Below are positions 3,856 to 60,408 of a DNA stretch of 64,000 bases, piece after piece. The notes under the pieces are model-generated. The model was given only the letters and a program-made list of their open reading frames with translations. It had not been told where the DNA came from and did no database searches. Each line of letters opens with the position of its first letter. Position 1 is the stretch's first letter. The position numbers and the translations under genes are program-made. Source of the DNA: a phage; the NCBI GenBank assembly GCA_014435945.1, contig GCA_014435945.1_4088.1; one strand, written 5' to 3'.

Positions 3856-5295
3856 ATGAAAAAATATACAATTGACACAAACGTACTACTATCTGATCCA
3901 AATGCTACCATTGCTTTTGATGGAGCAGCTATCATTCTACCGTTCACAGTACTTGAAGAATTGGATTCAATCAAAAGTCGTAATGTGGATGTTTCCCGTG
4001 ATGCTCGTGTTGCAATCCGTAACATTGAAGCTATCCTTTCTGATGCATCACATGAAGAAATTAGTAGTACTGGTGTTAATATTGCTGATGTTCATACTAA
4101 TATGAGTCCTGAAAGCAAATTGTTTGTTATTACAAGCGAAGAAGCTGAAGCACTAATTCGTACTGCTGGTAACGAAGAGAAAGTTCAAACTCTTCTAAAA
4201 AGCACAGTACCAGATGATAAAATCATTTTAGTAGCATTAGCAACTGATTCAGTACTGGTTACCCGTGATATCAATATGCGTATCAAGGCTCTAAGCTACG
4301 GGGTGGAAGTTCAAGATTACCGTCATGATATCGTGATTGGTGATAGTGATTTGATTCACATTGGTCAACATCACCTTGACCTACATTTCTGGGATGTGTA
4401 TAGTAATCTGACTGATGTATCTATTCAGTCTGAACAAGTTGGTCGTCGTTTGTACCACTACATTCCAAAAAGCTTGATTGAACATATCATGCCACAAAAT
4501 ATTTGCATCGGTGATTACCTATATGATAATGCTGATGTTCTATTTGTGTACGAAGGTCAATCTGCAATTGAAGAAGATGATGGTACTTTAACACCAGAAG
4601 ATATTCTTGTATTCCAAGATATTGGACAATCCGTTGCTCTACGTGCTAAAGTGTGGGATATTAAGGCTAAGAATATTCAACAAGCACTAGCAATCAACAG
4701 TATCCTAGATCCTGATGTTCATCTAACAGTACTGTTAGGTTCAGCAGGTACTGGTAAAACACTAATCACCATTGCAACTGCACTAGAGTTAGTTCTAGAG
4801 AAGAAAAAATACGACCGTATCATCTTCTCCAAAACACAAGATTCCCAATTCGAAGACATTGGTTTCTTGCCTGGTTCTGAAGCAGAGAAAGTGATTCCTT
4901 TCTGTGGTGCGGCAATCGATGCGTTGGAATTCCTACACAAAGATGATGCTAACCCACAAGGCAGTATCGAAGAAATCATGAAACGCAATGTTATCCAATT
5001 CAAAGCACTAAACTTCGTTCGTGGTCGTTCTTTCACAAATACTATCCTAGTAGTTGATGAATTCCAGAACATCACACCTGCTCAGGCAAAAACAATCTTG
5101 ACTCGTGCAGGGATGAACTGTAAAGTGGTTATTATGGGCAACTTGAGCCAGATTGACTCTAAATTCATTAGTCCAGTAAACAGCGGCCTAACTTATGTTA
5201 CCGAGAAGTTCAAGAACTGGGACGGCTGTCGTGTAATCGAACTAGAAGGTGTCGTTCGTTCACCACTAGCAGAATTTGCAGAAGAAAATATGTAA
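3856..5295 (+). CDS. phoH: PhoH-like ATPase with N-terminal PIN domain
   Basis: N-terminal PIN-like IDTNVLL; C-terminal Walker A LLGSAGTGKT and Walker B ILVVDEFQN typical of PhoH. Confidence 0.85.
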   Translation: MKKYTIDTNVLLSDPNATIAFDGAAIILPFTVLEELDSIKSRNVDVSRDARVAIRNIEAILSDASHEEISSTGVNIADVHTNMSPESKLFVITSEEAEALIRTAGNEEKVQTLLKSTVPDDKIILVALATDSVLVTRDINMRIKALSYGVEVQDYRHDIVIGDSDLIHIGQHHLDLHFWDVYSNLTDVSIQSEQVGRRLYHYIPKSLIEHIMPQNICIGDYLYDNADVLFVYEGQSAIEEDDGTLTPEDILVFQDIGQSVALRAKVWDIKAKNIQQALAINSILDPDVHLTVLLGSAGTGKTLITIATALELVLEKKKYDRIIFSKTQDSQFEDIGFLPGSEAEKVIPFCGAAIDALEFLHKDDANPQGSIEEIMKRNVIQFKALNFVRGRSFTNTILVVDEFQNITPAQAKTILTRAGMNCKVVIMGNLSQIDSKFISPVNSGLTYVTEKFKNWDGCRVIELEGVVRSPLAEFAEENM

Positions 5296-5361
5296 TAATG
5301 TGTGGGACATTCGTCCCATACATGATATAATAATATTGTTAACAACAAAGGAGAAATACTC

Positions 5362-5559
5362 ATGGCAAAGCAACCTAAGAAAAAAGAACCAGTAGCAAAA
5401 GTTAAGAAAGTTAAAGTTATTCAATCTAAAGAACAACGTAATTACGAACTACGTAAAGCAGAAACCCTATCAGGTCTTCAAGCTCTACGTAAACAAGGTG
5501 TTCTAACTCGTGCTCAATACCGTGAGATAGTAGCACAAAAAGGTTATTGGTCCATTTGA
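5362..5559 (+). CDS. small basic protein (hypothetical)
   Basis: ATG after AAAGGAG; Lys/Arg-rich 65-aa ORF followed by a terminator. Confidence 0.45.
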   Translation: MAKQPKKKEPVAKVKKVKVIQSKEQRNYELRKAETLSGLQALRKQGVLTRAQYREIVAQKGYWSI

Positions 5560-5653
5560 AGCAATAAACTGGAGTTCATGATAAATACTTTCATAAGAAT
5601 AATAATACTTTTTATTAATTTAAAAAGAACTCCATGTGTTATTTCAGTTTTTC

Positions 5654-5681
5654 ATCCCTGTCTTTTGGCAGGGATTTTTTC
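5654..5681 (+). terminator. intrinsic terminator
   Basis: ATCCCTG-tcttttgg-CAGGGAT hairpin followed by TTTTTT. Confidence 0.7.
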
Positions 5682-5775
5682 TTTCTAGATATTGACAAAA
5701 GGATTAAACCATGAGAACATGTAGTAAAGGAAGAATGACATTCCATTAGGTTAGTTTAACTTAAAGGAGAAATAT

Positions 5776-6333
5776 ATGTTTTTTGACCAAACATTTACGT
5801 TGTACCATGATTCAGGTAAAGTTGAGATTATTGATAATCTGTTAGAGTACATTGCGGAACATGACGGTATAGACCGTTTCCACAGTAAGATGAAATTCGA
5901 TTTAGCTGAATTCAACAAAAAGAATCGTGAAACATTTTGGAAGAACCGTTTCTATTACGAAATGTATCCAGAAAAGTTCGTAGGTTATTATCTTTGTACT
6001 GAAAAAGGATTACTTGTATCTCCTGATTTACTTATGGGTGAATACATGATACTCTATAATGAGTACTGGGAACATAAGCGTAATGCTCGTGACACTGAAT
6101 GGCGACACAAGCGTTCGTATATGTACAAACATAACCACTCCAGATACAAACGTCCTAAGACCCAACAAGAGCGTCGTATGGCTTGTGCAGTACTGAAGGA
6201 TGAGGGGGAACCTGAAATACGTGGAAGACGTAAGATGCGTTCATTGCCATCGTATTGGGATGATATCAGAACAAGACACAGTACTGGCTGGAAATACAGT
6301 ACAAAACGTAAACATCAATACAAAGGGAGCTAA
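5776..6333 (+). CDS. hypothetical protein
   Basis: ATG after AAAGGAG; 185-aa ORF with basic C-terminus. Confidence 0.5.
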   Translation: MFFDQTFTLYHDSGKVEIIDNLLEYIAEHDGIDRFHSKMKFDLAEFNKKNRETFWKNRFYYEMYPEKFVGYYLCTEKGLLVSPDLLMGEYMILYNEYWEHKRNARDTEWRHKRSYMYKHNHSRYKRPKTQQERRMACAVLKDEGEPEIRGRRKMRSLPSYWDDIRTRHSTGWKYSTKRKHQYKGS

Positions 6334-6360
6334 TGCTCCCTAATTTTATAGGTGAACTTT

Positions 6361-6690
6361 ATGAACAAAATTGACGTTACTGTAGTGATTGGTTATATTG
6401 AAATTGAACCGTGTGGCATTGATACCTTTATTGACACTCTTAATAAGTATCGTGCTGAATATGACGGTCACATTAGTCTTTCACCAGACAGTGGTTACGG
6501 CGGTTTTCATGGATACAATGTAATTTGGACCAGAGAAGAAACTGACGAAGAATATAATACACGAATTGAAGCTGAATCTAAAAGACGTGAAGAAATTGAA
6601 CGTCAAGAAATGAAACACTTAATGAACAAGAAATCATTAAGTACCGAAGAGAAATCTAAACTTTTAAAATACATCAAGGATTACATGTAA
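6361..6690 (+). CDS. hypothetical protein
   Basis: ATG chosen in frame with the ORF-track GTG at 6352; charged C-terminal helix. Confidence 0.45.
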   Translation: MNKIDVTVVIGYIEIEPCGIDTFIDTLNKYRAEYDGHISLSPDSGYGGFHGYNVIWTREETDEEYNTRIEAESKRREEIERQEMKHLMNKKSLSTEEKSKLLKYIKDYM

Positions 6691-7337
6691 TGAAAAATGT
6701 ATCACAAGAAAAGATTCTGTACCTTGCAAAGTACAATGGTGGATTTAATATTACCAGTTGTGAATATCATGGTAACATGGCTAAAATGATTGACGAGCTA
6801 CTAGAAGGTAAAATGCTCCGTTGGGAGACAAATGACCTTTGGTACGAATATGCGGGTCAACAATGGGAAAGTGACTACGATAATGCAATTCATACGTATA
6901 CAATTACTAAAAGTGGTGAAGTACGTTTGGCTATCATGCGTTGTGCTTACACTTACAAAAATTTCAAAGATGAAGAAAAGCATATTCGCCGAAATGAAGA
7001 GTTAGTACACCTAATGGGTGAAGCTGGCATTACAATGCATGACTTGTTCAATGATCCAAGATGGACTGGAAAACTGTCCAAAGCAGAATACAAAGCATTA
7101 CGATACATCCAAGAACCAGAAATCAACAAACCTAAAGAATGTATTGATGATGGTGAACTAAGCCTCAAAAATGTATTTGAAAGTACCAGTACTGAAAGTA
7201 TTACAGACATTTCTGTACAGATGGCACTAAAAGCAATGGAACTTTTCAAGACACAATATGAAGGACACAGTGCTGAAGAAGTAGAGCGTGAGTTCATTAC
7301 GCGAGTACAAATTGCATTACATAAATCAAAAAAGTAG
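6690..7337 (+). CDS. hypothetical protein
   Basis: ATG overlapping upstream stop; 215-aa ORF. Confidence 0.5.
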   Translation: MKNVSQEKILYLAKYNGGFNITSCEYHGNMAKMIDELLEGKMLRWETNDLWYEYAGQQWESDYDNAIHTYTITKSGEVRLAIMRCAYTYKNFKDEEKHIRRNEELVHLMGEAGITMHDLFNDPRWTGKLSKAEYKALRYIQEPEINKPKECIDDGELSLKNVFESTSTESITDISVQMALKAMELFKTQYEGHSAEEVEREFITRVQIALHKSKK

Positions 7338-9896: not shown

Positions 9897-10115
9897 ATGG
9901 ATCAGTATGAGATAACTTACGATTATTATGGTAAGGCTTATATGAAGTGTGGTCGTTTTGTTGAACTATCAAATAGAGAAGCAATCGACCCACAAACCAT
10001 TATATCCATCCATAACTCGTACTATAAAAAAATTACCATAGCTAATTTTGCAACATACGTAGATAATCCTATATTTCCGTATATCATTCATTTCTATTGT
10101 AGAGCTATAAAATAA
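9897..10115 (+). CDS. hypothetical protein
   Basis: 72-aa ORF immediately after upstream stop. Confidence 0.35.
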   Translation: MDQYEITYDYYGKAYMKCGRFVELSNREAIDPQTIISIHNSYYKKITIANFATYVDNPIFPYIIHFYCRAIK

Positions 10116-10125
10116 GGTAAAAAAA

Positions 10126-10536
10126 ATGTTAGCCGATGATTTTATGTCTCTAAGTATCAAGATATTTGATATATTAGGTGATGAAATAGATTTCCATCTA
10201 AATGATAAAACTATACCACACGAAGATGGTGGGTATTTTTTCGCATTTGGTAATAAGTTCAATGTTGATTTTTCAATTCCGGTTCCTGATGGAAGTGATT
10301 ATGCAGCATCAACATATTTTGAATTTCAGTTCAGTGGTCATACCGAGCGTTTACTAACATATAGACGTAAAGGAAATTTCAGTAGACCAGAGATTATATT
10401 AATGGATTTTGAAAAACGCATAGAACTTGCAAAGAATAATCCATTCATCAGTACTTATGCGTTAAACCAATTCATTGATCTATTTGATGGATATCCAGAC
10501 AGAATACGAGGGTCGTTACGTATAAATGCAGAATGA
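10126..10536 (+). CDS. hypothetical protein
   Basis: 136-aa ORF. Confidence 0.45.
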   Translation: MLADDFMSLSIKIFDILGDEIDFHLNDKTIPHEDGGYFFAFGNKFNVDFSIPVPDGSDYAASTYFEFQFSGHTERLLTYRRKGNFSRPEIILMDFEKRIELAKNNPFISTYALNQFIDLFDGYPDRIRGSLRINAE

Positions 10537-10711
10537 AATCTTTAAAAAAGAATACGATGGTGAAAGTCTATATGATATTCAGCGAGACGTACATGAAGCA
10601 TTCGATTCAAGATTTAACCCATTAGCTGGACAAATCCCACAAGATGAGTTTGGTTTCCAAGAAGGCACATTTACAGTGACTATTACATGGAGTCCAGATG
10701 AGACTAGCTAA
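10526..10711 (+). CDS. hypothetical protein
   Basis: 61-aa ORF overlapping upstream stop. Confidence 0.3.
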   Translation: MQNEIFKKEYDGESLYDIQRDVHEAFDSRFNPLAGQIPQDEFGFQEGTFTVTITWSPDETS

Positions 10712-10771
10712 ACTTGTAATCGGATGCAGTGCAATTGCTGCATATATGTTTTTTGCCGCTCCAACCAATGT

Positions 10772-10810
10772 AGTACTGCTAATTTGGGCAGTTTTTATAT
10801 TAGCAGTACT
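10772..10810. repeat. 12-bp perfect inverted repeat, each arm containing AGTACT
   Basis: AGTACTGCTAAT (10772-10783) and ATTAGCAGTACT (10799-10810) are exact reverse complements with a 15-nt spacer. Confidence 0.8.
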
Positions 10811-10813
10811 TTA

Positions 10814-10836
10814 AAGCACCCTAGTGGTGCTTTTTC
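10814..10836 (+). terminator. intrinsic terminator
   Basis: AAGCACC-ctagt-GGTGCTT hairpin followed by T-run. Confidence 0.65.
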
Positions 10837-10973
10837 TATTTGTACAAATATAAAGCAATGTGACCTTTCCTTGATATAGGTCAAGAGAAATACCCTGTTC
10901 TGACGCTATAATGGTGTCTGGTGATGTTAAATAACTTCACCCCCAGATGATTTCAAAATACAAGGAAAGTAAA

Positions 10974-12779
10974 ATGCAATTAGATAAATTATATACTGAC
11001 GTAACAAATTTCCTAAATCAGAGCAATACTGATCTTACAAATGAAAATGCAAACAAAGATGCGAAATGCGTCAATACACACAGGGATTTACTTGCTGGTA
11101 TCCTATCTAAGCATTATTCACAAGATGTTATTCCAAAGGAGCTAATGCAGTGGCATAATGATGGTTATGGTCACATTCATGATTTAGACTACTATATCAG
11201 CCCATTAACTAACTGTTGCTTGGTTAACTACCCAGATATGCTAAAAAATGGATTTACCATTGGTTGTGCCAAAATTGAAGAACCAAAGAGTTTTAGTGTA
11301 GCATGTACAGTACTGACACAAATTGTACAAGCTGTTGCTAGTTCCCAGTACGGTGGTCAATCGTTGGCTCATATCGACGTTGGTCTTGAACCTTACGTCC
11401 AAAAGTCGTGGGATAAGCTATTAGCGAAGCAAAAGGCATATAATCTCAGTACTGAATACATTGAGGAAGAATTACGAAAAGAAGTCTATGATGGGTGTCA
11501 AACCTTACTTTACCAGACAAATTCAATGATTAGTACAAACGGACAAGCAGCATTCATTTCTCTTAGTTTAGGACTGAATACTTCAAAATTTGGAAAATTA
11601 ATCACTGAACAGTACTTAAAAGTACATGAGAATGGTTTAGGCAAAGATAAGATTACTCCAGTGTTTCCTAAAGTAATTTTCTTTTTACAGGACGGAATCA
11701 ACATGAATAGCGATGATTGCAACTATGACATGAAACAGTTGGCAATGCGTTGTGCATCGAAGAGAATCTATCCAGACTTCGTTTCTGTACCGTTAAATCA
11801 CAAAGTGACAGGAAGTAGTAGCACAGCAGTAACTCCGATGGGTTGCCGTTCATTTTTAGGAAAATGGGAAGATTCCAATGGTAATGAGCAATACAACGGT
11901 CGTTTCAACTTAGGCGTGGTTTCCATCAATTTACCACTAATTGCTCTTGAAAGTGCATCAGATGGAGATTTTTTTGATAAAATAGACGAGCATATGAATA
12001 TTGCATATCGTGCTCAGATGAACCGTGTAGAGCGTTTAAAAGGCACAAAAGCGAAGCAGAATCCAATTTTGTTCATGGAAGGTGCACTTTCACGTTTAGG
12101 GGCTGAAGAAACGATTGACAAGCTATTTTATAACGGATATGCTAGTATTAGTATTGGTTACGTTGGTTTAGTTGAATGTTCAGAAATTCTGACTGGTTCT
12201 ATCAGTAAGGAGTTCTGCATGTCAGTTCTGAATTATATGAAAGTTAAATGCGATGAGTTCAAAAAAGAGAGTAACATAGCTTTTAGTCTATATGGAACCC
12301 CAGCAGAGTCACTTTGCTACAAATTTGCACGTTGCATCGAATCTAAGTATCCTTCAGTACTAAAACGTGATTACATCACAAATTCCTTCCACCAACCAGT
12401 ATGGGTAGCAAGTTCACCATTTGATAAGTGGAGTTACGAAGAGGGTTTTGCTTACCTCAGTAATGGTGGAAACATCAGTTATGTTGAATCACCCAACCTA
12501 AGTAACAATATTCAAGCACTTGAGACTTTAGTCAATTACGCTTACACAAAGATCCCATATTTTGGTATCAACCAGCCAATTGACCAGTGTTACGAGTGTG
12601 GGTATAAAGGTGAGTTCAGTGTGGATAAACACGGTTTTCATTGTCCAGTATGTGATAATCGCAATGAGAAGACAATCTCAGTGATTCGTCGTGTTTCTGG
12701 ATATTTGGGGAACCCATCGTCTCGTGGATTCAACAAAGGCAAACAACAAGAATGTTGTGAGCGTATACAACACAAATAA
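10974..12779 (+). CDS. nrdD: anaerobic ribonucleoside-triphosphate reductase (class III)
   Basis: C-terminal glycine-radical motif RRVSGYLG and CxxC..CxxC zinc ribbon; ATG after AAGGAAAG (ORF track started at 10947). Confidence 0.9.
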   Translation: MQLDKLYTDVTNFLNQSNTDLTNENANKDAKCVNTHRDLLAGILSKHYSQDVIPKELMQWHNDGYGHIHDLDYYISPLTNCCLVNYPDMLKNGFTIGCAKIEEPKSFSVACTVLTQIVQAVASSQYGGQSLAHIDVGLEPYVQKSWDKLLAKQKAYNLSTEYIEEELRKEVYDGCQTLLYQTNSMISTNGQAAFISLSLGLNTSKFGKLITEQYLKVHENGLGKDKITPVFPKVIFFLQDGINMNSDDCNYDMKQLAMRCASKRIYPDFVSVPLNHKVTGSSSTAVTPMGCRSFLGKWEDSNGNEQYNGRFNLGVVSINLPLIALESASDGDFFDKIDEHMNIAYRAQMNRVERLKGTKAKQNPILFMEGALSRLGAEETIDKLFYNGYASISIGYVGLVECSEILTGSISKEFCMSVLNYMKVKCDEFKKESNIAFSLYGTPAESLCYKFARCIESKYPSVLKRDYITNSFHQPVWVASSPFDKWSYEEGFAYLSNGGNISYVESPNLSNNIQALETLVNYAYTKIPYFGINQPIDQCYECGYKGEFSVDKHGFHCPVCDNRNEKTISVIRRVSGYLGNPSSRGFNKGKQQECCERIQHK

Positions 12780-12787
12780 GGTACATT

Positions 12788-13114
12788 ATGGATTTAAAGC
12801 CAATTGTGGTTAACAAATATAAAGAACCGTATGATGTGTATATCGGGCGTGGGTCTAAATGGGGAAACCCATTTACCCATATCAGTGATAAACAGACCAA
12901 AGCCGAGTTCATTGTTGCTACAAGGGAAGAATCAATCGAAAAGTTCAGAGAATACATTATTGAGCGTATTTCTAATGGAGAAGTTAAGATTGATGATTTA
13001 CTTGAGTTAGCAGGGAAACGTCTTGGCTGTTTCTGTAAACCGAAATCATGTCATGGTGATGTTCTCGTTGAGATAGTGAGTGCAATATTAGATGAATTAC
13101 CAGACGATAATTAA
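12788..13114 (+). CDS. DUF4326-like protein
   Basis: YIGRGSKWGNPF and CFCKPKSCHGDVL motifs, recalled from memory as DUF4326 signatures; sits between nrdD and nrdG. Confidence 0.45.
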   Translation: MDLKPIVVNKYKEPYDVYIGRGSKWGNPFTHISDKQTKAEFIVATREESIEKFREYIIERISNGEVKIDDLLELAGKRLGCFCKPKSCHGDVLVEIVSAILDELPDDN

Positions 13115-13562
13115 AGACGACCTTATTAATGGGGAGGGAGTAAGATGCTCCCTTTTTGTTAGTGGGTGCAGTCATGGGTGTGCCGGATGCTTCAACGAAG
13201 AAGCATGGGATTATAGAAGTGGACAAGAGTTCAGTACTGATACAATTGATATAATTTTAGCTGAACTCAGTAAGCCTTACGTTAGTGGATTATCCCTCCT
13301 TGGTGGAGATCCTCTAATGAAAAAGAACATAGAAACAATTTTAGAACTATGTAAGATTGTAAAAGAGACTTATCCCAATAAAACTATTTGGTGCTGGAGT
13401 GGATATACTTTAGAAGAGATTATGAATAATCATGCTAAAGACATTCTTCAGTACTTAGATGTATTAGTTGATGGTAAATTTGTTTCAGAAGAAAAGAATT
13501 TAACATTACCATTTCGTGGTTCAAATAACCAACGAATTTTATATAAAAATAAAGACTTTTAA
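13092..13562 (+). CDS. nrdG: anaerobic ribonucleotide reductase activating protein (radical SAM)
   Basis: Cys cluster CSLFVSGCSHGCAGCFN; immediately downstream of nrdD; start overlaps upstream gene. Confidence 0.85.
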   Translation: MNYQTIIKDDLINGEGVRCSLFVSGCSHGCAGCFNEEAWDYRSGQEFSTDTIDIILAELSKPYVSGLSLLGGDPLMKKNIETILELCKIVKETYPNKTIWCWSGYTLEEIMNNHAKDILQYLDVLVDGKFVSEEKNLTLPFRGSNNQRILYKNKDF

Positions 13563-13567
13563 ACACA

Positions 13568-13590
13568 AGCACCCAATGGGTGCTTTTTTA
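13568..13590 (+). terminator. intrinsic terminator
   Basis: AGCACCC-aat-GGGTGCT hairpin followed by TTTTTT; same stem family as the 10814 terminator. Confidence 0.7.
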
Positions 13591-13597
13591 TTACATT

Positions 13598-13605
13598 CAT
13601 AAATA
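13598..13605 (+). promoter_or_regulatory. possible T4-type late promoter-like element
   Basis: CATAAATA (7/8 to TATAAATA) 34 nt upstream of the first fiber gene. Confidence 0.25.
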
Positions 13606-13638
13606 CAGTAACTAATATCTAAATTACAAGGGATATGT

Positions 13639-16335
13639 ATGTCAAAGAAAATATATGGTGGCTTAGACGTCACTCATAATGTGACAGTTAAAGGGAAAAG
13701 AACAGTACAGGGCATCAATGATCAAGTATTTGATGCTAATGGTAATATGGAAATTGATACATATTCCAAAGAAGAATTACTTGATGTAATTAGTTTACTT
13801 CCAATCTCGCATTATGGTACACATAACTATCTACCTGCTGGGGTATCTGGTGATTTTAATGGTGCATCAGAAAACCAATCCCAACGTAGAAACAAAATAC
13901 TTTTAGAAAACGATGGCACATTAGTACTATTACGTAGTGGTACAAACGGTAGTGTTGAAGGTTTGTTTTATTCTTACCTAGCGAACGCATTATCCGTTAC
14001 CGATATGAGCCGTACTGTTAATACAAGCCGTCAGTATAAGCCTGGCTATTTTGGGGCAAACCGTGTTGCTATTGGTTTATACAATACCGATTCAAAAATA
14101 CTGTTAGGTCGTTACAATGACACATCTACCAATACTAATGGGTTGTTTATATCAGTAACGAATGGTACATTGGATGATACACAACATAGTGGTCTTTTTG
14201 TGAACCAAGCTGATATTTCACCTGAAGGTGGGATTGAGTATGCTATGATGGCAGAAGACGGTTCAGTTTATGTATTCAACGTCCTTAATGAAAATAACAA
14301 ACTACAGATTGTTGTTGTTCGTGTTGTATTGAATATTGCAAACGGTACTTATACTGCTACCCGAATCACGGGGTGGACAACAAAAACTTTTTATAATACT
14401 ACATATACTGCTCAGAATAATATGATCATTACTGACCATGTTAACTCAACTAATATTGCTGATAAGCCCTATGTCTATGTACCACAAAATTTGGCTGGTA
14501 TGGGGATTTATATGACATCTATCGATTTATATGTTGCTCAGGAGCCAGGAACGCAGAACTTCCGATTCAGAATGAATGGTGACGCATGGTTCACTATGGC
14601 AAACTACAATACCCGACCACAGCATAGTTATAGTTTCAATTTTAACATGAGTACTAAACAATGTAACTTGGATAATGGGAACGATATTGGTACATTTGCT
14701 GCACCATTTGTTGTTACAAACACAGGTTCGGCATTGGTTGCTACTGGTAATGTTCTCAACAACGATCCGTTATATGACCATAGCGGTGCAAGAAACATTT
14801 ACAGTTCATATTATTATTTGAATACAGGTGAAGTATTCTGTACTGCATGTCCAAACTTAGCAGAACCATTACTTATGCAGAAAGCTAAATTTACTGCACA
14901 ATCAATATATAGCATGATTAATGTACGTGCGAACATTTCAACTGATTTCAGAAATGGCATAGTTCGTCCTTCATTTGGTTCAGCAGTTGGTTCTTTTATT
15001 AACGGCGTAGAATTGCTTCCAGGGAACAGTACTAAACAGTATTCTCGTTCAACTGGTTCTGGTGCATTCCGTCCATCTTATGCAGTTCATAAAAGTACTC
15101 CTAACTTTACGTTTAATTCTTTATCACGTGGAACCATACAAGGTTATGAGCCAACAACAGAACGTGCTAATGTGACAGATAACACGAACAACAGAGTTTT
15201 TATTAGTTCCATTAGTGGTAATAATGTTACTACAAATGGTGGGATATTCATGGTAGGTCAGAGATATTCCCAATCACTATCATATGATAAAAATATGAAC
15301 GGAACTGGTATCATTAGTGTTACTCAATCTGTACTTGATAATTTCAGAAATGCTGAATACGCTAAAGTACTAAGCGACTGGAACTTATCTTCTGCTGCTT
15401 ATAAAGATATGACATTGTTTGTTCCACAACAAACTGATATACCTGCATTCGTAATGCTAAGTACAGTTACAAATACATATCAGAACTATATTAGAATTGC
15501 TGAAGTGAATGTGAATACACGTTCAGGTAATATCACTACAATTACCTTCAAGCGTTTAGTACTAGAAAACGTTTACGGAAGTAACTTTACACCAAATGGT
15601 AATGGTAGTTTTGCATCGTCTTCTGTTGGTTTAACAATATATGATGGTGGTTCTTTCTACTTCATAGGTGGTTCTGACCCATTATCTCACCCAACTATAG
15701 GTAATACAAGTACACATCAATTTAGAGCATATGTAACAAAAGCTACTGCACAATTTGATAGTTTTATTATCAGTGGTTCACATGCAAGTTATGAGCAAGG
15801 TATTCAACCAGCAGCTTTACCTGGTATTGGTTTTGGTTATTTCCAAGCAATAGACTATGTAAACAAAATGACTTTCCAAAAATGTGGTACTACAATTGCT
15901 GATTATAATAACTGGACTGCTCAAGGTGCACCGATTAACGTAGTTTCACAAGACGTTGCTCAAGGTTTTATTGTGTACTTCACAGAAGAAACTCCAGTAA
16001 TTCTTTCTGGTAAAGCATTTACATTACCGATTACTAGTATAAACTTAACTACAGTTAAGGCTAATCCAGCAAACACATTATTTCATGTATATGTTAAAAT
16101 GGAACAAGGTAATGCAAAATATGTAATAACAACTGATGTTATTTCAGAGACTGGTACTACAGCATATAATATTTTCTGGATAGGTACTATACAAACAAAC
16201 TCACTACAAATATCAAATGTTAACATACAAAAACGTTCAAGATTGGATATTTTCGGTGCGTCTCTTGAAGCTGCTGGTTCTTCATTCCCAGTTAGTTATG
16301 GTCTACCGTCACAAACAGGAACAATCAATTGGTAA
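13639..16335 (+). CDS. tail fiber / receptor-binding protein, paralog 1
   Basis: 898-aa S/T/N/G-rich protein; shares N-terminal LPISHYG module and C-terminal GSSFPVSYGLPSQTGTINW module with 16348 and 16952. Confidence 0.55.
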   Translation: MSKKIYGGLDVTHNVTVKGKRTVQGINDQVFDANGNMEIDTYSKEELLDVISLLPISHYGTHNYLPAGVSGDFNGASENQSQRRNKILLENDGTLVLLRSGTNGSVEGLFYSYLANALSVTDMSRTVNTSRQYKPGYFGANRVAIGLYNTDSKILLGRYNDTSTNTNGLFISVTNGTLDDTQHSGLFVNQADISPEGGIEYAMMAEDGSVYVFNVLNENNKLQIVVVRVVLNIANGTYTATRITGWTTKTFYNTTYTAQNNMIITDHVNSTNIADKPYVYVPQNLAGMGIYMTSIDLYVAQEPGTQNFRFRMNGDAWFTMANYNTRPQHSYSFNFNMSTKQCNLDNGNDIGTFAAPFVVTNTGSALVATGNVLNNDPLYDHSGARNIYSSYYYLNTGEVFCTACPNLAEPLLMQKAKFTAQSIYSMINVRANISTDFRNGIVRPSFGSAVGSFINGVELLPGNSTKQYSRSTGSGAFRPSYAVHKSTPNFTFNSLSRGTIQGYEPTTERANVTDNTNNRVFISSISGNNVTTNGGIFMVGQRYSQSLSYDKNMNGTGIISVTQSVLDNFRNAEYAKVLSDWNLSSAAYKDMTLFVPQQTDIPAFVMLSTVTNTYQNYIRIAEVNVNTRSGNITTITFKRLVLENVYGSNFTPNGNGSFASSSVGLTIYDGGSFYFIGGSDPLSHPTIGNTSTHQFRAYVTKATAQFDSFIISGSHASYEQGIQPAALPGIGFGYFQAIDYVNKMTFQKCGTTIADYNNWTAQGAPINVVSQDVAQGFIVYFTEETPVILSGKAFTLPITSINLTTVKANPANTLFHVYVKMEQGNAKYVITTDVISETGTTAYNIFWIGTIQTNSLQISNVNIQKRSRLDIFGASLEAAGSSFPVSYGLPSQTGTINW

Positions 16336-16347
16336 AGGATTAATCTT

Positions 16348-16935
16348 ATGGCATATATTATAAGATCCGATATCGAAGCTATGTCACAAATCGTAGTCCA
16401 GAATAAAAACACTGGACTATCTATTAGTGATATTAATGACGTATCGTATCGAACAGACGCAAATGGGGAATGTACATTCCCCCTCTTAACAAAAGATGAA
16501 GTTGATTCTATTGTTAACGGTTTACCATTATCACAATATGGTGAACTTTATGATGTATCTAGTTTGTCAATTACATCAAGCGGTTATTCATTACGTTTTA
16601 ACCGAGAGATACCTGCATTCATCGGTGGCTATCTTTATAATTACCCTGTTGTTGCAGTGACAGCACCAACAGTTGTATCAGGAACACAAACACAATATGT
16701 ATACGCTACTTTAGTACTGGGTGAGCCAATTTATAGAATCTCAACTTCACAATTACAAGAATCACAGATTATAATGTTCATCGGGACTATTACCGTTGGA
16801 ACTTCTGGTATTACTGCTATCAACATTGAACGCGTATCACGATTCAATACATACAGACCAAGTACAACACAAAAAGGTTCATCTTTCCCAGTCAGTACTG
16901 GAAATCCAACACAAACTGGTACATTAGGCTGGTAA
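16348..16935 (+). CDS. mini fiber paralog (N- and C-terminal fiber modules only)
   Basis: 195 aa; LPLSQYG N-terminal module and RFNTYRPSTTQKGSSFPVSTGNPTQTGTLGW C-terminus matching flanking fibers. Confidence 0.4.
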   Translation: MAYIIRSDIEAMSQIVVQNKNTGLSISDINDVSYRTDANGECTFPLLTKDEVDSIVNGLPLSQYGELYDVSSLSITSSGYSLRFNREIPAFIGGYLYNYPVVAVTAPTVVSGTQTQYVYATLVLGEPIYRISTSQLQESQIIMFIGTITVGTSGITAINIERVSRFNTYRPSTTQKGSSFPVSTGNPTQTGTLGW

Positions 16936-16951
16936 TTAAAGGAAAAAGAAT

Positions 16952-19681
16952 ATGTCATCCAAACGCATCATTGGTAGTGCTGCTATACTTGGAAATTTAG
17001 CAATTGGTGGAAAGTACGCTATGCGTACTTTTAATGGTACAGCACCAGACGCAAATACAGGTATTGTTAACTATCCAATTTATAAAAGATCAGAAGTTCA
17101 AAAAATACTTGATATGTTACCAATCTCCCGTATAGGGGAAATGGATTATCTACCATTAAACGTTAATGGTTCATACGAAGGGGCAACGTCGCTTTCAGAT
17201 GTATACCGTATGCAACCAACAATAGTCGAAGATGATGGTACTGGTGTGGTATTACGTGCTGGTACAAATGGTAGTACTGAAGGATATTACTATGCATTCA
17301 TTCGTGATTTGCGTAATATTGATGCACTAACACAAAGTAGTGTTATCAGTACTACATCAAAATATCATCCTAGAATTCTTCCAAGTACTGAAAATGTTAA
17401 ACAGTTTATCGGAACGAATGGTTATGAATTACTAGTTAGCCTATCTAGTGCAAGTAATTATATTTTCACTTTAACAAATGGTACATTTAACGAAGTTGCA
17501 CATATTCACGCTTCTATCGCTGCTACATCATTTGGTACAGATAAACCATTGTATGCACATATCGTTAATGATAAAGTATTTGTGTGGTGCAAAGACACTA
17601 CTATAGCAAACTATGGTTTGGCTTTAACATTATATACTGTTAATACAAGTAGTATTAAAGATGGTACTATGAGTACTTTTGCTAAGGTTACTGGTTTTTC
17701 TGGTCAAACCTTAAGAAGTGTTAACTACACAAGTGCTAATAATTTGAAAATTTATGAAAGATTATATTCAGTTGGAACTAGTAGTGATTCATTATTTGAA
17801 TGCACTTCACCAGTTACACGAGTTGAATATTCAGATTATACAGATTATAATATACAAGCAAACGTAAGTCCAGATTTATCAAAGATTAGAATTACATTAT
17901 TCCCAACTAACCGTTTAGTATCAAATCTATATATTAGTACTGTTTATGCTAGTGGTTTTAGTTTTGTTTATACTATCAACTCTAAATCATTATCAATTGA
18001 TGGAAGTAGTAGAGCACCAATAGCAGCGGAATATAATGATGTTGATGGATTCACATTAACAAACCCATTTGCCATTGAGATGAACAACTTCATGGGTACA
18101 CAGTTAGGTGTTCCGCAATTAGGTAACGTTGGTTCTATATGCCAAACCTATGACGGTTTAGTATTCAGTACTCGTGCTCGTTGGAGTTCTTCTGAAACCT
18201 ATGGTATTCAGGTTTATAACGTAACAGGAACACCATATGATAGTTGGGTTGCCAGTACTCGCAAAGCGAACAATTCTAAATTTGTAAACGTTGCCCCAAC
18301 ATATGGTAGTGCAGTAGGTGAAAACCTTTTAGGAACACGTTTTATTGATAAACGTAAAGTACTGTTAGCATGTTCTGGAACATATGAAGATGAGTCATAT
18401 GGTTATAACAATACAGTATTTTCTGAAATTGGCACTGATCCAACCTTCCAGTTCAATTCAGTACAAAACAATACAACACTTAATGGTTTTGCACCACAAG
18501 CCAACCGAACTCGCCTCGGCGACAACTACAAATATACAGGTATGATTTCATTAATTGATACTGACGGTTCAGTTAAATGTTATGGGACATCATTCATTGA
18601 AGGTGTATACAAAACAAGTGGTGGTTTGTTTAACCCAGATACTTTAGAATTTGATGGTTCTTATACAATTGGTGATAATGTTCTGGAAACATTAAAACAA
18701 GAAATACTTGCTAATATTGGAATAGTAGGAGCATTTACTGGTAAAATTGCTTTATATTATGTACCAGATAGTTCTTTCTCAAAATCTATTGCGGTGGTTT
18801 CTGCATATAACTTAGGAAATAACCAAGGTTATGCAATATATTCTGAAGTTGATGTCACTGTTTCAGGAACCAATATTAGTTCTGCGTCTATGGTGAGTTC
18901 TAGATACGAAACACTTAATTCTGTAACAGGTATTGTAACCGAAGCCTATATGAAACGCTGTACTGGTCTAACTGTTGCTAAGTATTCTGGTTTTGGTTAT
19001 ATTGGTGTTGATGCAGTTCATCAGTTTTCACAACCTGGTAATGCTCAATTCAAATTGATGATTGCTAAAACAGTGAATGGTTTGATTACATCTAACCGAT
19101 TTATGTCATCCAGCTACATAGATAATGGCAATGCATTCCAGCACGGAGTTATACCAGGTGTTGGATTTGGATACTATCATCTTCAAGATTCAGATTATCA
19201 AACTAAAGCAGTGTTTAGTCTCTTTGGGACAACATCAGCACAGATGGATGGGTTGATTGATGGTTCAGGAACTGTACAAGATAAAATCGTAGTAGTTTCA
19301 CAAGATGTTGCTGAAGGTTTCACTGTGTACTTCACCCGTGAAGTTCCGGTATTCCTTGGTGGTATGTTTGATAGATTAGCGATTCAAACCATAGAATTAA
19401 GTACTATTAAAACTAACCCAGCTAACAGTACTTTTTATCTTTACATTCAAATGAACCGTAACACAAGAAAAGCGGCATACGTTATCAGTACAACTCTTCT
19501 TGATGAGACATTGACAAACGTATATGTTGGTGATATTGTTACTGGAAGTACGAGTATTACGTCAATTGATACTGAAAAGGTAACCCGATTCTTGACATAC
19601 AGACCTAGTACGACCAAGCGTGGTTCTGCTATCCCAGCAAGTACTGGTGTTCCTTCAAGCTCTGGTACACGTTGGCATTAA
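16952..19681 (+). CDS. tail fiber / receptor-binding protein, paralog 2
   Basis: 909 aa; LPISRIG N-terminal module; C-terminus RFLTYRPSTTKRGSAIPASTGVPSSSGTRWH. Confidence 0.55.
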   Translation: MSSKRIIGSAAILGNLAIGGKYAMRTFNGTAPDANTGIVNYPIYKRSEVQKILDMLPISRIGEMDYLPLNVNGSYEGATSLSDVYRMQPTIVEDDGTGVVLRAGTNGSTEGYYYAFIRDLRNIDALTQSSVISTTSKYHPRILPSTENVKQFIGTNGYELLVSLSSASNYIFTLTNGTFNEVAHIHASIAATSFGTDKPLYAHIVNDKVFVWCKDTTIANYGLALTLYTVNTSSIKDGTMSTFAKVTGFSGQTLRSVNYTSANNLKIYERLYSVGTSSDSLFECTSPVTRVEYSDYTDYNIQANVSPDLSKIRITLFPTNRLVSNLYISTVYASGFSFVYTINSKSLSIDGSSRAPIAAEYNDVDGFTLTNPFAIEMNNFMGTQLGVPQLGNVGSICQTYDGLVFSTRARWSSSETYGIQVYNVTGTPYDSWVASTRKANNSKFVNVAPTYGSAVGENLLGTRFIDKRKVLLACSGTYEDESYGYNNTVFSEIGTDPTFQFNSVQNNTTLNGFAPQANRTRLGDNYKYTGMISLIDTDGSVKCYGTSFIEGVYKTSGGLFNPDTLEFDGSYTIGDNVLETLKQEILANIGIVGAFTGKIALYYVPDSSFSKSIAVVSAYNLGNNQGYAIYSEVDVTVSGTNISSASMVSSRYETLNSVTGIVTEAYMKRCTGLTVAKYSGFGYIGVDAVHQFSQPGNAQFKLMIAKTVNGLITSNRFMSSSYIDNGNAFQHGVIPGVGFGYYHLQDSDYQTKAVFSLFGTTSAQMDGLIDGSGTVQDKIVVVSQDVAEGFTVYFTREVPVFLGGMFDRLAIQTIELSTIKTNPANSTFYLYIQMNRNTRKAAYVISTTLLDETLTNVYVGDIVTGSTSITSIDTEKVTRFLTYRPSTTKRGSAIPASTGVPSSSGTRWH

Positions 19682-19689
19682 AAATTTTA

Positions 19690-19717
19690 AGCTCGTCTAT
19701 TGACGGGCTTTTCTTTT
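19690..19717 (+). terminator. intrinsic terminator
   Basis: AGCTCGTC-tatt-GACGGGCT hairpin (one G-U pair) followed by T-rich run. Confidence 0.55.
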
Positions 19718-19728
19718 ATGTGTATAAT
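19700..19728 (+). promoter_or_regulatory. sigma70-type promoter
   Basis: TTGACG, 17-nt spacer, TATAAT; 24 nt upstream of the 19752 ORF. Confidence 0.6.
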
Positions 19729-19751
19729 GCTAGAAAATACAGGAGGAAATT

Positions 19752-20318
19752 ATGGTCAAATCTTTACTACCACCACCAAAGCGTCACAAAATCCAAGAAA
19801 TGAAAGACCAACGTACATTAAAGATGTACAACAATTTAGTTAAGTTACTGTGTAAAAGTCCATCGCTCAAAGCAGAGTTTAAAACTGATGATGACCGCAA
19901 AGCACTAATTGAGATGAAGTATATGCTCAGTAAAATGTCCTTTTACAAATTTGTAAAAGAATACGCATCTGACCCATTTAGTCCTCGTTGGAGAACCAAA
20001 CCAAGAGAGTTTTTTTTCGGTGGTTCATATACTGATATCATTCAAGATACTGTGATAGGCGTAGAGTTCGAGATTGATTATGAGCCGAATGGTGTGGAAA
20101 ACTTGCTGATTGAGAAACGTTTACCAAGTGAAGAAGAAATTTATGTTTATGCAAGAAAACTTTCAACTTACAGTTCAAGAATTACTCTAGGCAAGTTAGA
20201 TTCATTTATTATTTTCTATATACGTGTTGGTGTAGATAAAATGGTAACTAAACTCAATGAACTTTCATTACAACAAAAACAGATTAATGCATACAAAGAC
20301 ATTACTGATTTATACTAA
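19752..20318 (+). CDS. hypothetical protein, tandem paralog A
   Basis: Shares TDDDRKALIEMKYMLSK-type motif with the next two ORFs; ATG after CAGGAGG. Confidence 0.5.
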   Translation: MVKSLLPPPKRHKIQEMKDQRTLKMYNNLVKLLCKSPSLKAEFKTDDDRKALIEMKYMLSKMSFYKFVKEYASDPFSPRWRTKPREFFFGGSYTDIIQDTVIGVEFEIDYEPNGVENLLIEKRLPSEEEIYVYARKLSTYSSRITLGKLDSFIIFYIRVGVDKMVTKLNELSLQQKQINAYKDITDLY

Positions 20319-20324
20319 TGAGGA

Positions 20325-20846
20325 ATGAATATGTTTTTTGGCCCAGTTGGAAAACAAAACAGTACTTTAATTTGGCATGAAATTATCTTTAAAATTATAT
20401 CAAAAAGTTTCACACTTAAAGATATCATCAATACAGATCAAGATCGTCGTGTTCTGTTAGAAGCAAAATATAAATTGAGCAAACACCCTTTGCTACCATT
20501 AATCATTGATTACGTTAATGATTATGAATCCAGTCGTTGGAAGTTTGAAGAAGGCGGTTTATTTCGTGGAAAAACATTCTACGGTGCGGAACGATATGTA
20601 TTCAGTGATGCAACAAATGGCGTTAAGTTTGCTATTAGAAACTTTAACTCCAAAGAAAATGATTATCTTGAAAGTGGAGTGAAAGTATATATCGATAATA
20701 ATAGCAATGTTCTAACATATGACGAATCACTAATTATGTTACAAATAATGCGTGGCGTTGAAGGTGTAAGACACAATCTTACTAATTTGAAAATTCAGCA
20801 AAATGATATACATAATAGACAGAAAATTAAGGGTTTATATAAATGA
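20325..20846 (+). CDS. hypothetical protein, tandem paralog B
   Basis: Motif TDQDRRVLLEAKYKLSK; similar length. Confidence 0.5.
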   Translation: MNMFFGPVGKQNSTLIWHEIIFKIISKSFTLKDIINTDQDRRVLLEAKYKLSKHPLLPLIIDYVNDYESSRWKFEEGGLFRGKTFYGAERYVFSDATNGVKFAIRNFNSKENDYLESGVKVYIDNNSNVLTYDESLIMLQIMRGVEGVRHNLTNLKIQQNDIHNRQKIKGLYK

Positions 20847-21352
20847 TTTCATTTTTCAAAAAGAAAGAAAAAGTTGATGAAACTGGATTAGAATCGTTTC
20901 TATGGACTCTTATCATCAAAAAAAGTCCATTGATAAAAGAATATGCCATCAATGATACTAATAGAAAAACTATCATTGAATACAAATACGAATTATCAAA
21001 ATGTGATCCGATTGTTTACCACTTTGTAAAGTACTGTTCTAAAAATTTATCGGATATCACCATTGATTATGAGTCAGTACCAATGAGTTTTCCTTATGGA
21101 GATTGGGTAAATACTTATGATATTTTTGATGGGTCTAACGGATTCAATTTTTATTTCACATCAAATAAAGCATATGTTCGAATCAAAACAGATATAGGTT
21201 GGGCATTACATAGCTCAAATAAAGAAGATTATAATTTATTAGCTGATGTATACAGAAGTGTTAAGAATTCAAAGGATATTGATGAAAGAATTAAAAAGCA
21301 AAATCGCATTTCTTTATCTTTAGAAACATATAAGTCAAAGTACGGTGGTTAA
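20843..21352 (+). CDS. hypothetical protein, tandem paralog C
   Basis: Motif NDTNRKTIIEYKYELSK; start overlaps upstream stop. Confidence 0.5.
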   Translation: MISFFKKKEKVDETGLESFLWTLIIKKSPLIKEYAINDTNRKTIIEYKYELSKCDPIVYHFVKYCSKNLSDITIDYESVPMSFPYGDWVNTYDIFDGSNGFNFYFTSNKAYVRIKTDIGWALHSSNKEDYNLLADVYRSVKNSKDIDERIKKQNRISLSLETYKSKYGG

Positions 21353-21354
21353 TT

Positions 21355-21756
21355 ATGACTACAATCGATGATATCTACAGTACTATACGCAATATGAGTA
21401 CAGATAGAAAAGTCTTTGGTGACAAAGAAAAGTCCAAATGTTATGGCATCGATTCTTTTGATATTATTTCATACGAATATAATAACAATGGGACAAGTTC
21501 ACTAAACATTGTGTGTCCACGAGATCCAGAAAATAATTTCATGTACGTTGAAATTAACAATGATGGTATGTTCTTTACTAAAGTATATAAAGGTGGGAAA
21601 GAATACGAACCCATCGAAGTAATGAATGAAGAGAAATTCTTCCAAGAAGATACCATCATCAATCTTGGATTTAGTTACAATGACTATCAAGTACTGGATC
21701 ATGATTTTAAACGATACTATAATGGTTTTCTAAAGGAGTTAACGATTTACTTATGA
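21355..21756 (+). CDS. hypothetical protein
   Basis: 133-aa ORF. Confidence 0.45.
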   Translation: MTTIDDIYSTIRNMSTDRKVFGDKEKSKCYGIDSFDIISYEYNNNGTSSLNIVCPRDPENNFMYVEINNDGMFFTKVYKGGKEYEPIEVMNEEKFFQEDTIINLGFSYNDYQVLDHDFKRYYNGFLKELTIYL

Positions 21757-22991
21757 AAAACAATTTTCTAGAACAAACTATTGTGAAACACTTAGCTGGT
21801 TCACAGGCGTATGGCACAAGCACACCAGAAAGTGATACAGATTATCGTGGTATCTTCCTTGCAAACAAAGAATATATCCTAACTCCTTTTTTTAATGTTA
21901 AGGAAGTTTCAGATACTTCTGAAGAAGATACTAAATTTTATGAAATCAATCAGTACTTAAGTCTGTATACTGAAGCTAACCCAAACATTCTTGAATCACT
22001 ATGGGTTAAACCGGAACACATCGTAGAAAGTACTGAAATCTATGACTATCTACGCTCATTCAATCAGCAATTATTGAGTTCAAAGATTGCACATTCATAC
22101 AGTGGTTATGCATACAATCAGGTTAAGCGTATGTCTAATCACCACGGCTGGCTCGATAAGGAACGAATTGCTGAACGTAAACTAAATGAAATTTTAGAAG
22201 AACATCCAGTTGACGAAGTACTTTCATGGATGTATGATACATTCCCGCAGTATTTGGTAGACCGTTTGAATAAATCCAATCTTCACCCATTCAATGCTAC
22301 AAAAATTGATTTTGAAAAATACATGCGTGATACTTCATTACAATTAGTTTCAACACAAGCATTGAAACAATATCATTTTGTACGTTTAGTACATAATTAT
22401 AGTACTGACAAAGTATTAGATCGTGATTTCAATTTATTGAATTACAATTCAGGGTATGAACTAATCCATTACGGTGAAAACATCTTTGGGGTAATTATCA
22501 ACCCGAATGAAAGTACAGTGAATGCTGATGGTTCACTACGTTACTTCAACAAAGAACGTACTACAGAAGAATTGAAAGTTCGTCCTGAACTCATTGTAAA
22601 ATTCAATGAAAAGGAATACAAAGAAAATAGTGAGAACCGTAAGAGTTATCACAAATGGAAGCAGAATCGTAATGCCAAACGTGCTATTCTTGAATCACAC
22701 CACGGTTATGACTGCAAACATGCTATGCATACAATCAGGCTGCTGAATACAGCACAGGAAGCACTTGAAACTGGTATCATCCAAGTTCACCGACCGGATG
22801 CTGCTATGTTGATGGACATTCGTAACGGGAAGTGGTTGTATCAAGAAGTTATGGATTATTTCAACGAAAAGGTTGACTACATCCGAAATGTGGCGTATCA
22901 TAAGACCCATCTACCGAAGCGACCAAACATAAAGTTGGCTACGAAGGTACTATTAGATATCCGTGAAATGCAATGGTACAGTAAAAAATAA
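21753..22991 (+). CDS. Pol-beta-superfamily nucleotidyltransferase (possibly PF10127-like)
   Basis: N-terminal GSQAYGTSTPESDTDYRGIF (GS ... [DE]xD NTase motif). Confidence 0.45.
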   Translation: MKNNFLEQTIVKHLAGSQAYGTSTPESDTDYRGIFLANKEYILTPFFNVKEVSDTSEEDTKFYEINQYLSLYTEANPNILESLWVKPEHIVESTEIYDYLRSFNQQLLSSKIAHSYSGYAYNQVKRMSNHHGWLDKERIAERKLNEILEEHPVDEVLSWMYDTFPQYLVDRLNKSNLHPFNATKIDFEKYMRDTSLQLVSTQALKQYHFVRLVHNYSTDKVLDRDFNLLNYNSGYELIHYGENIFGVIINPNESTVNADGSLRYFNKERTTEELKVRPELIVKFNEKEYKENSENRKSYHKWKQNRNAKRAILESHHGYDCKHAMHTIRLLNTAQEALETGIIQVHRPDAAMLMDIRNGKWLYQEVMDYFNEKVDYIRNVAYHKTHLPKRPNIKLATKVLLDIREMQWYSKK

Positions 22992-60362: not shown

Positions 60363-60408
60363 TTAAATATTTCCTCAGAATAGATTATATATTAAGTATT
60401 TATTTTAG

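Follow-up and report, generated by a model that had tools for sequence, protein, structure and literature searches.

Three adjacent genes in a jumbo Escherichia coli phage encode paralogous proteins that are best read as variants of one design, in which a short core is either interrupted by a large inserted head or left without it. The genes lie on the plus strand of a 64,000-nucleotide stretch of phage DNA (GenBank assembly GCA_014435945.1, contig GCA_014435945.1_4088.1), the whole of which we refer to as the window. They encode proteins of 898, 195, and 909 amino acids (aa), here called A898, M195, and B909, and a check of the open reading frames (ORFs) gave exactly the coordinates of an initial annotation of this DNA. 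Over the stretch that holds the trio, the window is 99.3–99.4% identical to the Asteriusvirus jumbo coliphages fEgEco12, vB_Ec-M-J, and Ecwhy_1, and ~78% identical to the group of 121Q, PBECO4, phAPEC6, and JP4; the window is an Asteriusvirus jumbo E. coli phage. On balance, we consider it probable that the three genes form a late operon for low-copy receptor-binding proteins on the baseplate side of the virion, with M195 as a headless structural subunit. The proteins and their parts are listed below, where "mini" denotes a headless member of the family.

13639–16335, plus strand: A898, 898-aa virion protein at array position 1, with a propeller-bearing head (ORF; phrog_3573, E = 3e-263).
13639–13854, plus strand: A898 residues 1–72, N-terminal share of the core, ending LPISHYG...LPAGVSGD (hhalign against the mini family, E = 8e-15; junction alignment).
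13855–15957, plus strand: A898 residues 73–773, inserted all-beta region with beta-propeller fold matches.
15958–16332, plus strand: A898 residues 774–898, C-terminal share of the core, a beta-sandwich and conserved tail ...GSSFPVSYGLPSQTGTINW (hhalign against the mini family, E = 4e-37).
16348–16935, plus strand: M195, 195-aa headless paralog, core only.
16952–19681, plus strand: B909, 909-aa virion protein at array position 3, with a propeller-bearing head (ORF; phrog_3573, E = 1e-230).
Within B909, plus strand: core, residues 1–74 and 787–909; insertion, residues 75–786 (17174–19309) (junction alignment).

That the ORFs at 13639–19681 are related, as initially proposed, was confirmed by BLASTP: A898 and B909 align across their full length at 26% identity (E = 5e-54), M195 residues 23–192 align with B909 residues 738–906 (E = 3e-22, with an N-terminal stretch at E = 2e-4), and M195 aligns with A898 over the last ~120 residues (E = 5e-17) and, more weakly, over the first ~65 (E = 2e-5). 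Profile–profile comparison recovered both the C-terminal block (probability 99.9%, E = 4e-37) and the N-terminal block (M195 1–74 against A898 1–68; probability 98.4%, E = 8e-15). In these pairwise alignments the similarity is more than compositional and lies far past chance, and we take the three ORFs to be true paralogs. The terminal blocks described for the two large proteins are real, but homology is not limited to them and runs the whole length, with 28–40% identity at the N end, 14–24% in the centre, and 46–48% at residues 751–850. The C-terminal block, put at ~35 aa, actually comprises ~125 aa. M195 does keep both ends, but its N block is only the first ~70 aa, and the TNGS[VT]EG motif assigned to that block (A898 102–108) falls within the portion that M195 lacks. 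A tblastn search of the window found no copies beyond the trio.

Database searches placed the proteins in families of their own. A898 and B909 match phrog_3573 (E = 2.9e-263 and 1.3e-230), and M195 matches phrog_26864 (E = 2.1e-83 over 1–195 of 195); both PHROGs are listed as "unknown function", and the only other PHROG matches of M195 are large paralogs. Pfam gave no match for the trio, its downstream neighbours, or ten mid-size family members (none at E ≤ 0.1 for M195). Searches with phmmer and hmmsearch of all chains in the Protein Data Bank (PDB), which includes the C-terminal domain of phiKZ gp131, returned nothing relevant at E ≤ 10 for A898, B909, or the profiles A1 and A3; matches to BLIP-II at E ~1 were discarded as noise.

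The relationship between the two ends is seen in an alignment of the junction in large and small members drawn from several lineages. In every mini, "...LP(L/I/V)SxYG-x4-LxV(S/T)G" continues straight into "G(F/Y/W)xVxF...", and all aligned large proteins carry 701–723 inserted residues at that one point. The distant 231-aa member P0085 reads "DYLPPNVSGGWIVYFTDETP", which fuses the A898 sequence "NYLPAGVSG" (63–71) directly to a near match of "GFIVYFTEETP" (776–786). Because all minis join exactly where the large members carry the extra residues, the most fitting reading is that the first ~70 and the last ~125 residues make up a single unit, within which the ~700-residue centre is inserted. The ends had been taken for separate modules, and the junction alignment points instead to one domain broken by an insertion. 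Nor do the central domains diversify as modules, as had been supposed: the centres are homologous, and their ratios of nonsynonymous to synonymous substitution rates (dN/dS, omega) are 0.08 for A898 and 0.14 for B909. The idea that the centres are swapped cassettes was likewise ruled out by homology between paralogs and orthologs and by purifying selection.

Structure prediction suggests what the core and the insertion could be. The AlphaFold2 model of M195, made from a 23-sequence alignment, has a beta-sandwich at residues 70–165 (pLDDT 85–95) and low confidence in the first 20 and last 25 residues. The M195-type beta-sandwich can be superposed, as a fold match, on the shoulder domains of solved receptor-binding proteins and on TssK N-terminal domains. 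The suggestion that conserved ends dock on the virion or drive trimerisation is in line with this result, in that the ends of the trio carry a fold known from the domain by which receptor-binding proteins trimerise and are anchored, and M195 keeps exactly those ends. The sandwich is followed by a conserved Ser/Thr/Gly/Pro-rich tail of ~30 residues with an invariant final Trp; by analogy with the neck that follows the shoulder in solved receptor-binding proteins, this tail may fold only in the oligomer.

The A898 model (pLDDT 85, pTM 0.79) is globular and all-beta between residues ~70 and ~865 and disordered at both ends. The label "fiber" does not hold by fold, since A898 is confidently predicted as a globular all-beta protein. 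In structure comparison its centre matches beta-propeller folds, each match spanning about one third of the 700-aa region at 5–12% identity. The AAL/AofleA fucose lectins, sialidases, and the phi92 endosialidase have the propeller fold in common with the A898 centre at that same 5–12% identity, and a Pfam scan of the trio proteins matched no glycosidase or lectin family. A structure-based search of viral models found the fold in many jumbo phages, where it is mostly labelled "virion structural protein". We also considered whether the trio might be the "whiskers" (hairy fibres) of phAPEC6 and CBB and rejected this identity, as the proteins are predicted to be globular. It is further opposed by the length of the CBB whiskers (~119 nm) and by GAP32, which has the full trio and no reported whiskers. 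The authors of the CBB paper were unable to assign the whiskers to any protein.

Mass spectrometry (MS) of orthologs of the large proteins in JP4, phAPEC6, and GAP32 supports the view that these are virion-associated proteins. The phAPEC6 ortholog of A898, gp323c, was found in the virion proteome with four peptides (PMC7247149). In JP4, the orthologs of A898 (JP4_233) and B909 (JP4_235) were detected with two peptides each at similarly low abundance (1.8e6 and 2.3e6; PMC12648861 supplement), and the comparison table of the CBB paper lists GAP32_144 and GAP32_145 as detected in virions of GAP32. The orthologs of M195 and B909 in phAPEC6 (L002, MK817115, 6348–9681) are intact and unannotated in GenBank, where only a 37-aa ORF is called; they were probably outside the database searched for that proteome. 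In the CMSTMSU record (L001, MH494197), the trio genes are split into fragments, some labelled "minor tail protein". Proteomes built on annotations like those of phAPEC6 and CMSTMSU may have overlooked these proteins. MS data from Agricanvirus (RAY gp18, DM gp19) come from crude lysates, with numbering unverified against Desertfox, and were not used as virion evidence.

The genes found around the array in relatives point to a neighbourhood of receptor-binding proteins. In the metagenomic relative L003 (Logan SRR18476386_53), tailspike-like genes stand on either side of the trio (4853–7195 and 13423–15540), and both are absent from the window; because of this difference, we interpret the site after nrdG as a variable locus for receptor-binding proteins. 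One of the two L003 genes encodes PF27114 (Phage_tail_beta) with Peptidase_S74 and the other PF27114 with Beta_helix. In the table of the CBB paper, which is apparently ordered by gene position, the RaK2 tailspike cluster ORF526–534 comes just before this point. Fibre genes with an S74 chaperone lie near the family members of Goslar, and a baseplate gene lies near those of Desertfox.

The origin of M195 can be traced through phages that have three full-length paralogs of ~900 aa each after nrdG, namely GAP32, CBB, Erwinia phage pEa_SNUABM_12, and Yersinia phage fHe-Yen9-04; the CBB authors had previously given CBB_147, CBB_148, and CBB_149 as paralogs. Among the GAP32 proteins, GAP32_143 is orthologous to A898 (44% identity) and GAP32_145 to B909 (39%). 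M195 matches the two ends of the protein between them: residues 1–67 align with GAP32_144 1–67 (43% identity, E = 1e-11) and residues 79–195 with GAP32_144 794–912 (44.5% identity, E = 1e-30). A neighbour-joining tree of the 125-aa C-terminal modules has three position-specific clades. The M195-type minis fall within the middle-position clade, which has the third-position clade as its sister (100% bootstrap). Since both halves match the ends of GAP32_144 and the tree places it in the middle clade, we identify M195 as the middle paralog of GAP32, CBB, and Eneladus-type phages minus its head. The L003 mini clusters with full-length middle paralogs (84% bootstrap), and the minis of Asteriusvirus and Klebsiella phage fENko-Kae01 form a separate clade; despite this split, the junction is identical in all three. 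The M195-type minis may go back to one deletion event or to more, as the neighbour-joining tree, built on 125 aa, is not decisive on their number.

M195 equals a large paralog minus its centre exactly, as would be expected if it were a recent deletion remnant, or the recombination intermediate once suggested for it, with no function of its own. We regard this as very improbable. The M195 family comprises 29 clusters at 90% identity, of 190–202 aa plus one truncated fragment, which have diverged to 41% identity, and its gene has a ribosome-binding site of its own. Against phAPEC6, dN/dS is 0.21 for M195 at a dS of ~1.1, compared with 0.09 for A898 and 0.125 for B909. The large–mini–large order of Asteriusvirus also recurs in fENko-Kae01 and in the 120-kb contig L003, and analogous minis arose independently elsewhere. 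By these measures M195 is not decaying and is held by purifying selection; its fixed length, its omega of 0.21, and its recurrence exclude a recombination intermediate.

Headless copies were found in other array positions and in other jumbo-phage lineages. In L015 the order is mini–920–911: the two large genes are orthologs of GAP32_144 and GAP32_145, and the mini is of the first-position type, with 55% identity to the C-terminal part and 48% to the N-terminal part of GAP32_143. L016 has nrdG–mini–932, that is, a mini and one large gene. On the unrelated contig L014, a 235-aa mini comes after a member of at least 947 aa, and the two have both N- and C-terminal parts in common. In Erwinia phage Desertfox, gp18 (420 aa, without the insertion) adjoins gp19 and gp20 (~1150 aa each), and in Goslar (genes 28 and 26) a 169-aa mini lies two genes upstream of an 867-aa member, beside Peptidase_S74 fibre genes. 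Searching 1.84 billion representative proteins with a profile returned 491 relatives. Among the best 150 of these matches, 144 sequences were new; their lengths are bimodal, at ~120–250 and ~850–1050 aa, and about one third of them are shorter than 260 aa. From this distribution among loci we infer that loss of the head arose independently, in another array position and in other lineages of jumbo phages.

At the N terminus, Desertfox gp18 and gp19 also share ~285 aa with homology to YomR-like fibre proteins, which indicates that differing N-terminal attachment regions are joined to one shoulder-like core across phage groups. The homologous region (Desertfox, L006 1613–6420) is the N part of the YomR-like fibre proteins of Goslar (L013 1649–9537), of which Goslar_00025 carries a Peptidase_S74 chaperone domain.

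A898, M195, and B909 are members of a family that has no name and is common among jumbo myophages, and in the reading that we favour they would be low-copy virion proteins made from one late unit. Their first ~70 and last ~125 residues would fold into a shoulder-type beta-sandwich followed by the ~30-residue tail, and this core would trimerise and anchor the protein to the baseplate, as in solved relatives of the fold. The propeller-like insertion of ~700 residues in A898 and B909 would then be a probable host-binding, glycan-recognising head. M195, the middle paralog without a head, would still be able to oligomerise and dock, and could be built into the A898/B909 assembly, either joining their chains in a mixed trimer or filling a docking position as a trimer without heads. 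With the exception of L016, every Rak2-like locus that we examined has all three lineages together in a constant order, and each lineage keeps a type-specific signature in its C-terminal tail across genera. That the core is kept at every head loss, that the lineages stay in order, and that their tails are type-specific argues for a structural job of the core's own. Of the roles first offered for the mini protein, that of an adaptor or structural partner is our best guess; nothing was found in favour of a decoy.

Several points weigh against this reading. The N-terminal 60 residues and the C-terminal tail have low confidence in the monomer models, and the packing of both halves into one domain comes from the junction alignment, not from coordinates. 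The propeller matches are generic, with no binding or catalytic site recognised, although no coordinate-level comparison of sites was made. Pairing with a mini is common but not universal, as the large member of SPN3US has none within 6 kb. Finally, no mini has ever been detected in a virion, and that of JP4, JP4_234, is not among the 49 proteins detected in JP4 virions (PMC12648861 supplement). This absence is uninformative, because trypsin yields only five peptides of 7–30 aa from the mini, compared with 29 and 36 from the large proteins, of which two per protein were detected.

The non-detection would also be expected if M195 were a non-virion assembly factor, a template or chaperone that transiently co-assembles with nascent A898 and B909 through its core, aids their trimerisation or docking, and is then released. 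M195 is small (195 aa), its gene directly follows a large receptor-binding-type gene in the same operon, and it shares exactly the parts expected to drive oligomerisation. However, non-detection in JP4 is what chance would give, and the full-length ortholog GAP32_144 is a virion protein by MS. M195 is unlike any Pfam family, fibre-assembly families included, and the position of the mini varies, being upstream of the large gene in L015, L016, and Goslar and downstream in the window and L014. We therefore consider such a factor distinctly unlikely.

A different view would make the three proteins independent homotrimers with unrelated functions, such as glycan-degrading enzymes or decoration proteins, and the mini a small structural protein of the same fold. 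The propeller fold is indeed also found in sialidases, glycoside hydrolases, or phosphorylases, and the family must be able to form homo-oligomers, since some phages have only one large member. We judge this view unlikely, given that the ordered lineages are conserved as described above, that each headless copy retains both halves of the core, that the neighbours are fibre, tailspike, or baseplate genes, and that no catalytic motif was recognised (again short of a coordinate-level comparison).

Within the favoured reading of M195 as a structural subunit, one specific arrangement is conceivable, though we would not call it likely: A898, M195, and B909 could form an asymmetric 1:1:1 heterotrimeric receptor-binding protein through their shoulder cores. 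Each core would then have its own, non-interchangeable place, which would account for the three ordered lineages and their type-specific tails. The heads would be individually dispensable, and clean excision would yield three-headed forms (GAP32, CBB) and two-headed forms (Asteriusvirus, L015); a further reduced form may be seen in L016, which has a mini and only one large gene.

The trio probably constitutes a single late transcription unit bounded by terminators. The gaps between its genes are 12 nt (A898–M195) and 16 nt (M195–B909), and a Shine-Dalgarno-like sequence precedes each gene. The flanking elements are as follows.

13567–13592, plus strand: terminator-like hairpin and T-run after nrdG, upstream boundary of the trio (scan match 13567–13585, then TTTTTTATT).
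13598–13606, plus strand: CATAAATAC motif, candidate late promoter ~33 nt before the ATG (conserved across phages).
19689–19718, plus strand: terminator-like hairpin and T-run, downstream boundary of the trio (scan match 19689–19710, then TTCTTTT).

An equivalent GCACCC...GGGTGC hairpin with a T-run lies upstream of the array in the eight relatives where this stretch was read, and a motif (A/C/T)ATAAATAC is found ~33 nt before the first array gene in nine diverged phages or contigs. The same motif follows a hairpin ahead of a minus-strand gene for a 654-aa virion protein (motif 60396–60403, minus strand; ATG at 60362). Its likeness to the T4 late promoter TATAAATA makes it a candidate for the late promoter of this phage group. 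As ATAAATAC is not enriched in the window (four matches against six expected), the case rests on conservation across phages and on position. A sigma-70-like sequence, TTGACG-17-TATAAT, lies at 19700–19728, ahead of the next gene, which encodes the first of the small paralogs downstream of the trio.

The array is preceded by nrdD, a DUF4326 gene, and nrdG, and followed by three small tandem paralogs and an RlaP-type nucleotidyltransferase gene. The small paralogs (188, 173, and 169 aa; 19752–21352) lie directly downstream of the trio and match phrog_18641 twice and phrog_7868; in relatives the array is likewise trailed by comparable small genes. The DUF4326 gene (108 aa; 12788–13114) lies between nrdD and nrdG and overlaps the start of the latter (13092–13562) by 23 nt, unlike in L003, GAP32, CBB, and L016, where it is downstream of the array. 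Divergence of the region 10001–22990 from phAPEC6 (L002) is mosaic: nucleotide identity is 89–93% in the nrdD region, 67–84% in the trio with a minimum in the centre of B909, 88–96% in the small paralogs, and 74–80% in the nucleotidyltransferase gene. This mosaic suggests segment-wise exchange around the trio between sublineages of Asteriusvirus.

The closest structural parallels to the trio core are the shoulder proteins, including ORF18 of lactococcal phage p2 (PDB 2WZP), those of phage 1358, TssK of the T6SS, and gp34 of A-1(L), which have the same fold and presumed role and no detectable sequence similarity to it. In cyanophage A-1(L), the trimeric shoulder of the long tail fibre gp34 anchors the fibre to the baseplate wedge (PMC10966104). 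Solved shoulders are N-terminal and are followed by a neck and a C-terminal head, whereas in A898 and B909 the sandwich is C-terminal, the presumed head is inserted between "VSG" and "GF", and the chain starts with one half of the core and finishes with the other; minis lack the head altogether. A small shoulder-only protein has a precedent in SPP1 gp22 (PDB 2XC8), which has no sequence similarity to M195 and lacks its additional N-terminal ~60 aa and its conserved C-terminal tail. As far as we are aware, no function has been assigned to SPP1 gp22, and no large paralog adjoins it.

The organisation of the trio also resembles that of phiKZ gp131, gp133, gp134, and gp135, which are tandem paralogs with a common terminal attachment region, modelled as a hetero-oligomeric fibre base; gp131 has a beta-propeller that is thought to bind the host (PMC13250141). 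This likeness is one of organisation only, with the A3 and A1 profiles matching nothing in the PDB. In phiKZ the propeller is C-terminal, and the domain common to the paralogs is N-terminal and includes a helical bundle, in contrast to the split core and inserted head of the trio. Tfa of lambda, P2, and Mu and gp38 of T4 are, like M195, small and encoded beside a receptor-binding gene. Unlike them, M195 is a paralog of its own neighbours and not a separate chaperone fold, matches no such assembly family, and differs in gene order between lineages. In the literature that we searched, we found no description of a split core with an inserted head and recurrent headless paralogs.

In jumbo phages of the Rak2/121Q group, most genes lack an assigned function, and the host-recognition apparatus is largely among them. 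Our analysis gives a structural reading to a family that has been annotated merely as "hypothetical", "structural", or "minor tail" proteins, and it shows that headless paralogs repeatedly accompany the large proteins and are conserved. Should the headless chain indeed be a subunit, these phages could alter the number of heads on a receptor-binding complex while leaving its attachment to the baseplate undisturbed; if the complex is a 1:1:1 heterotrimer, headless subunits would tune the valency of receptor binding. Such changes in head number would be relevant to host-range engineering of therapeutic jumbo coliphages, among them fEgEco12, phAPEC6, and JP4.

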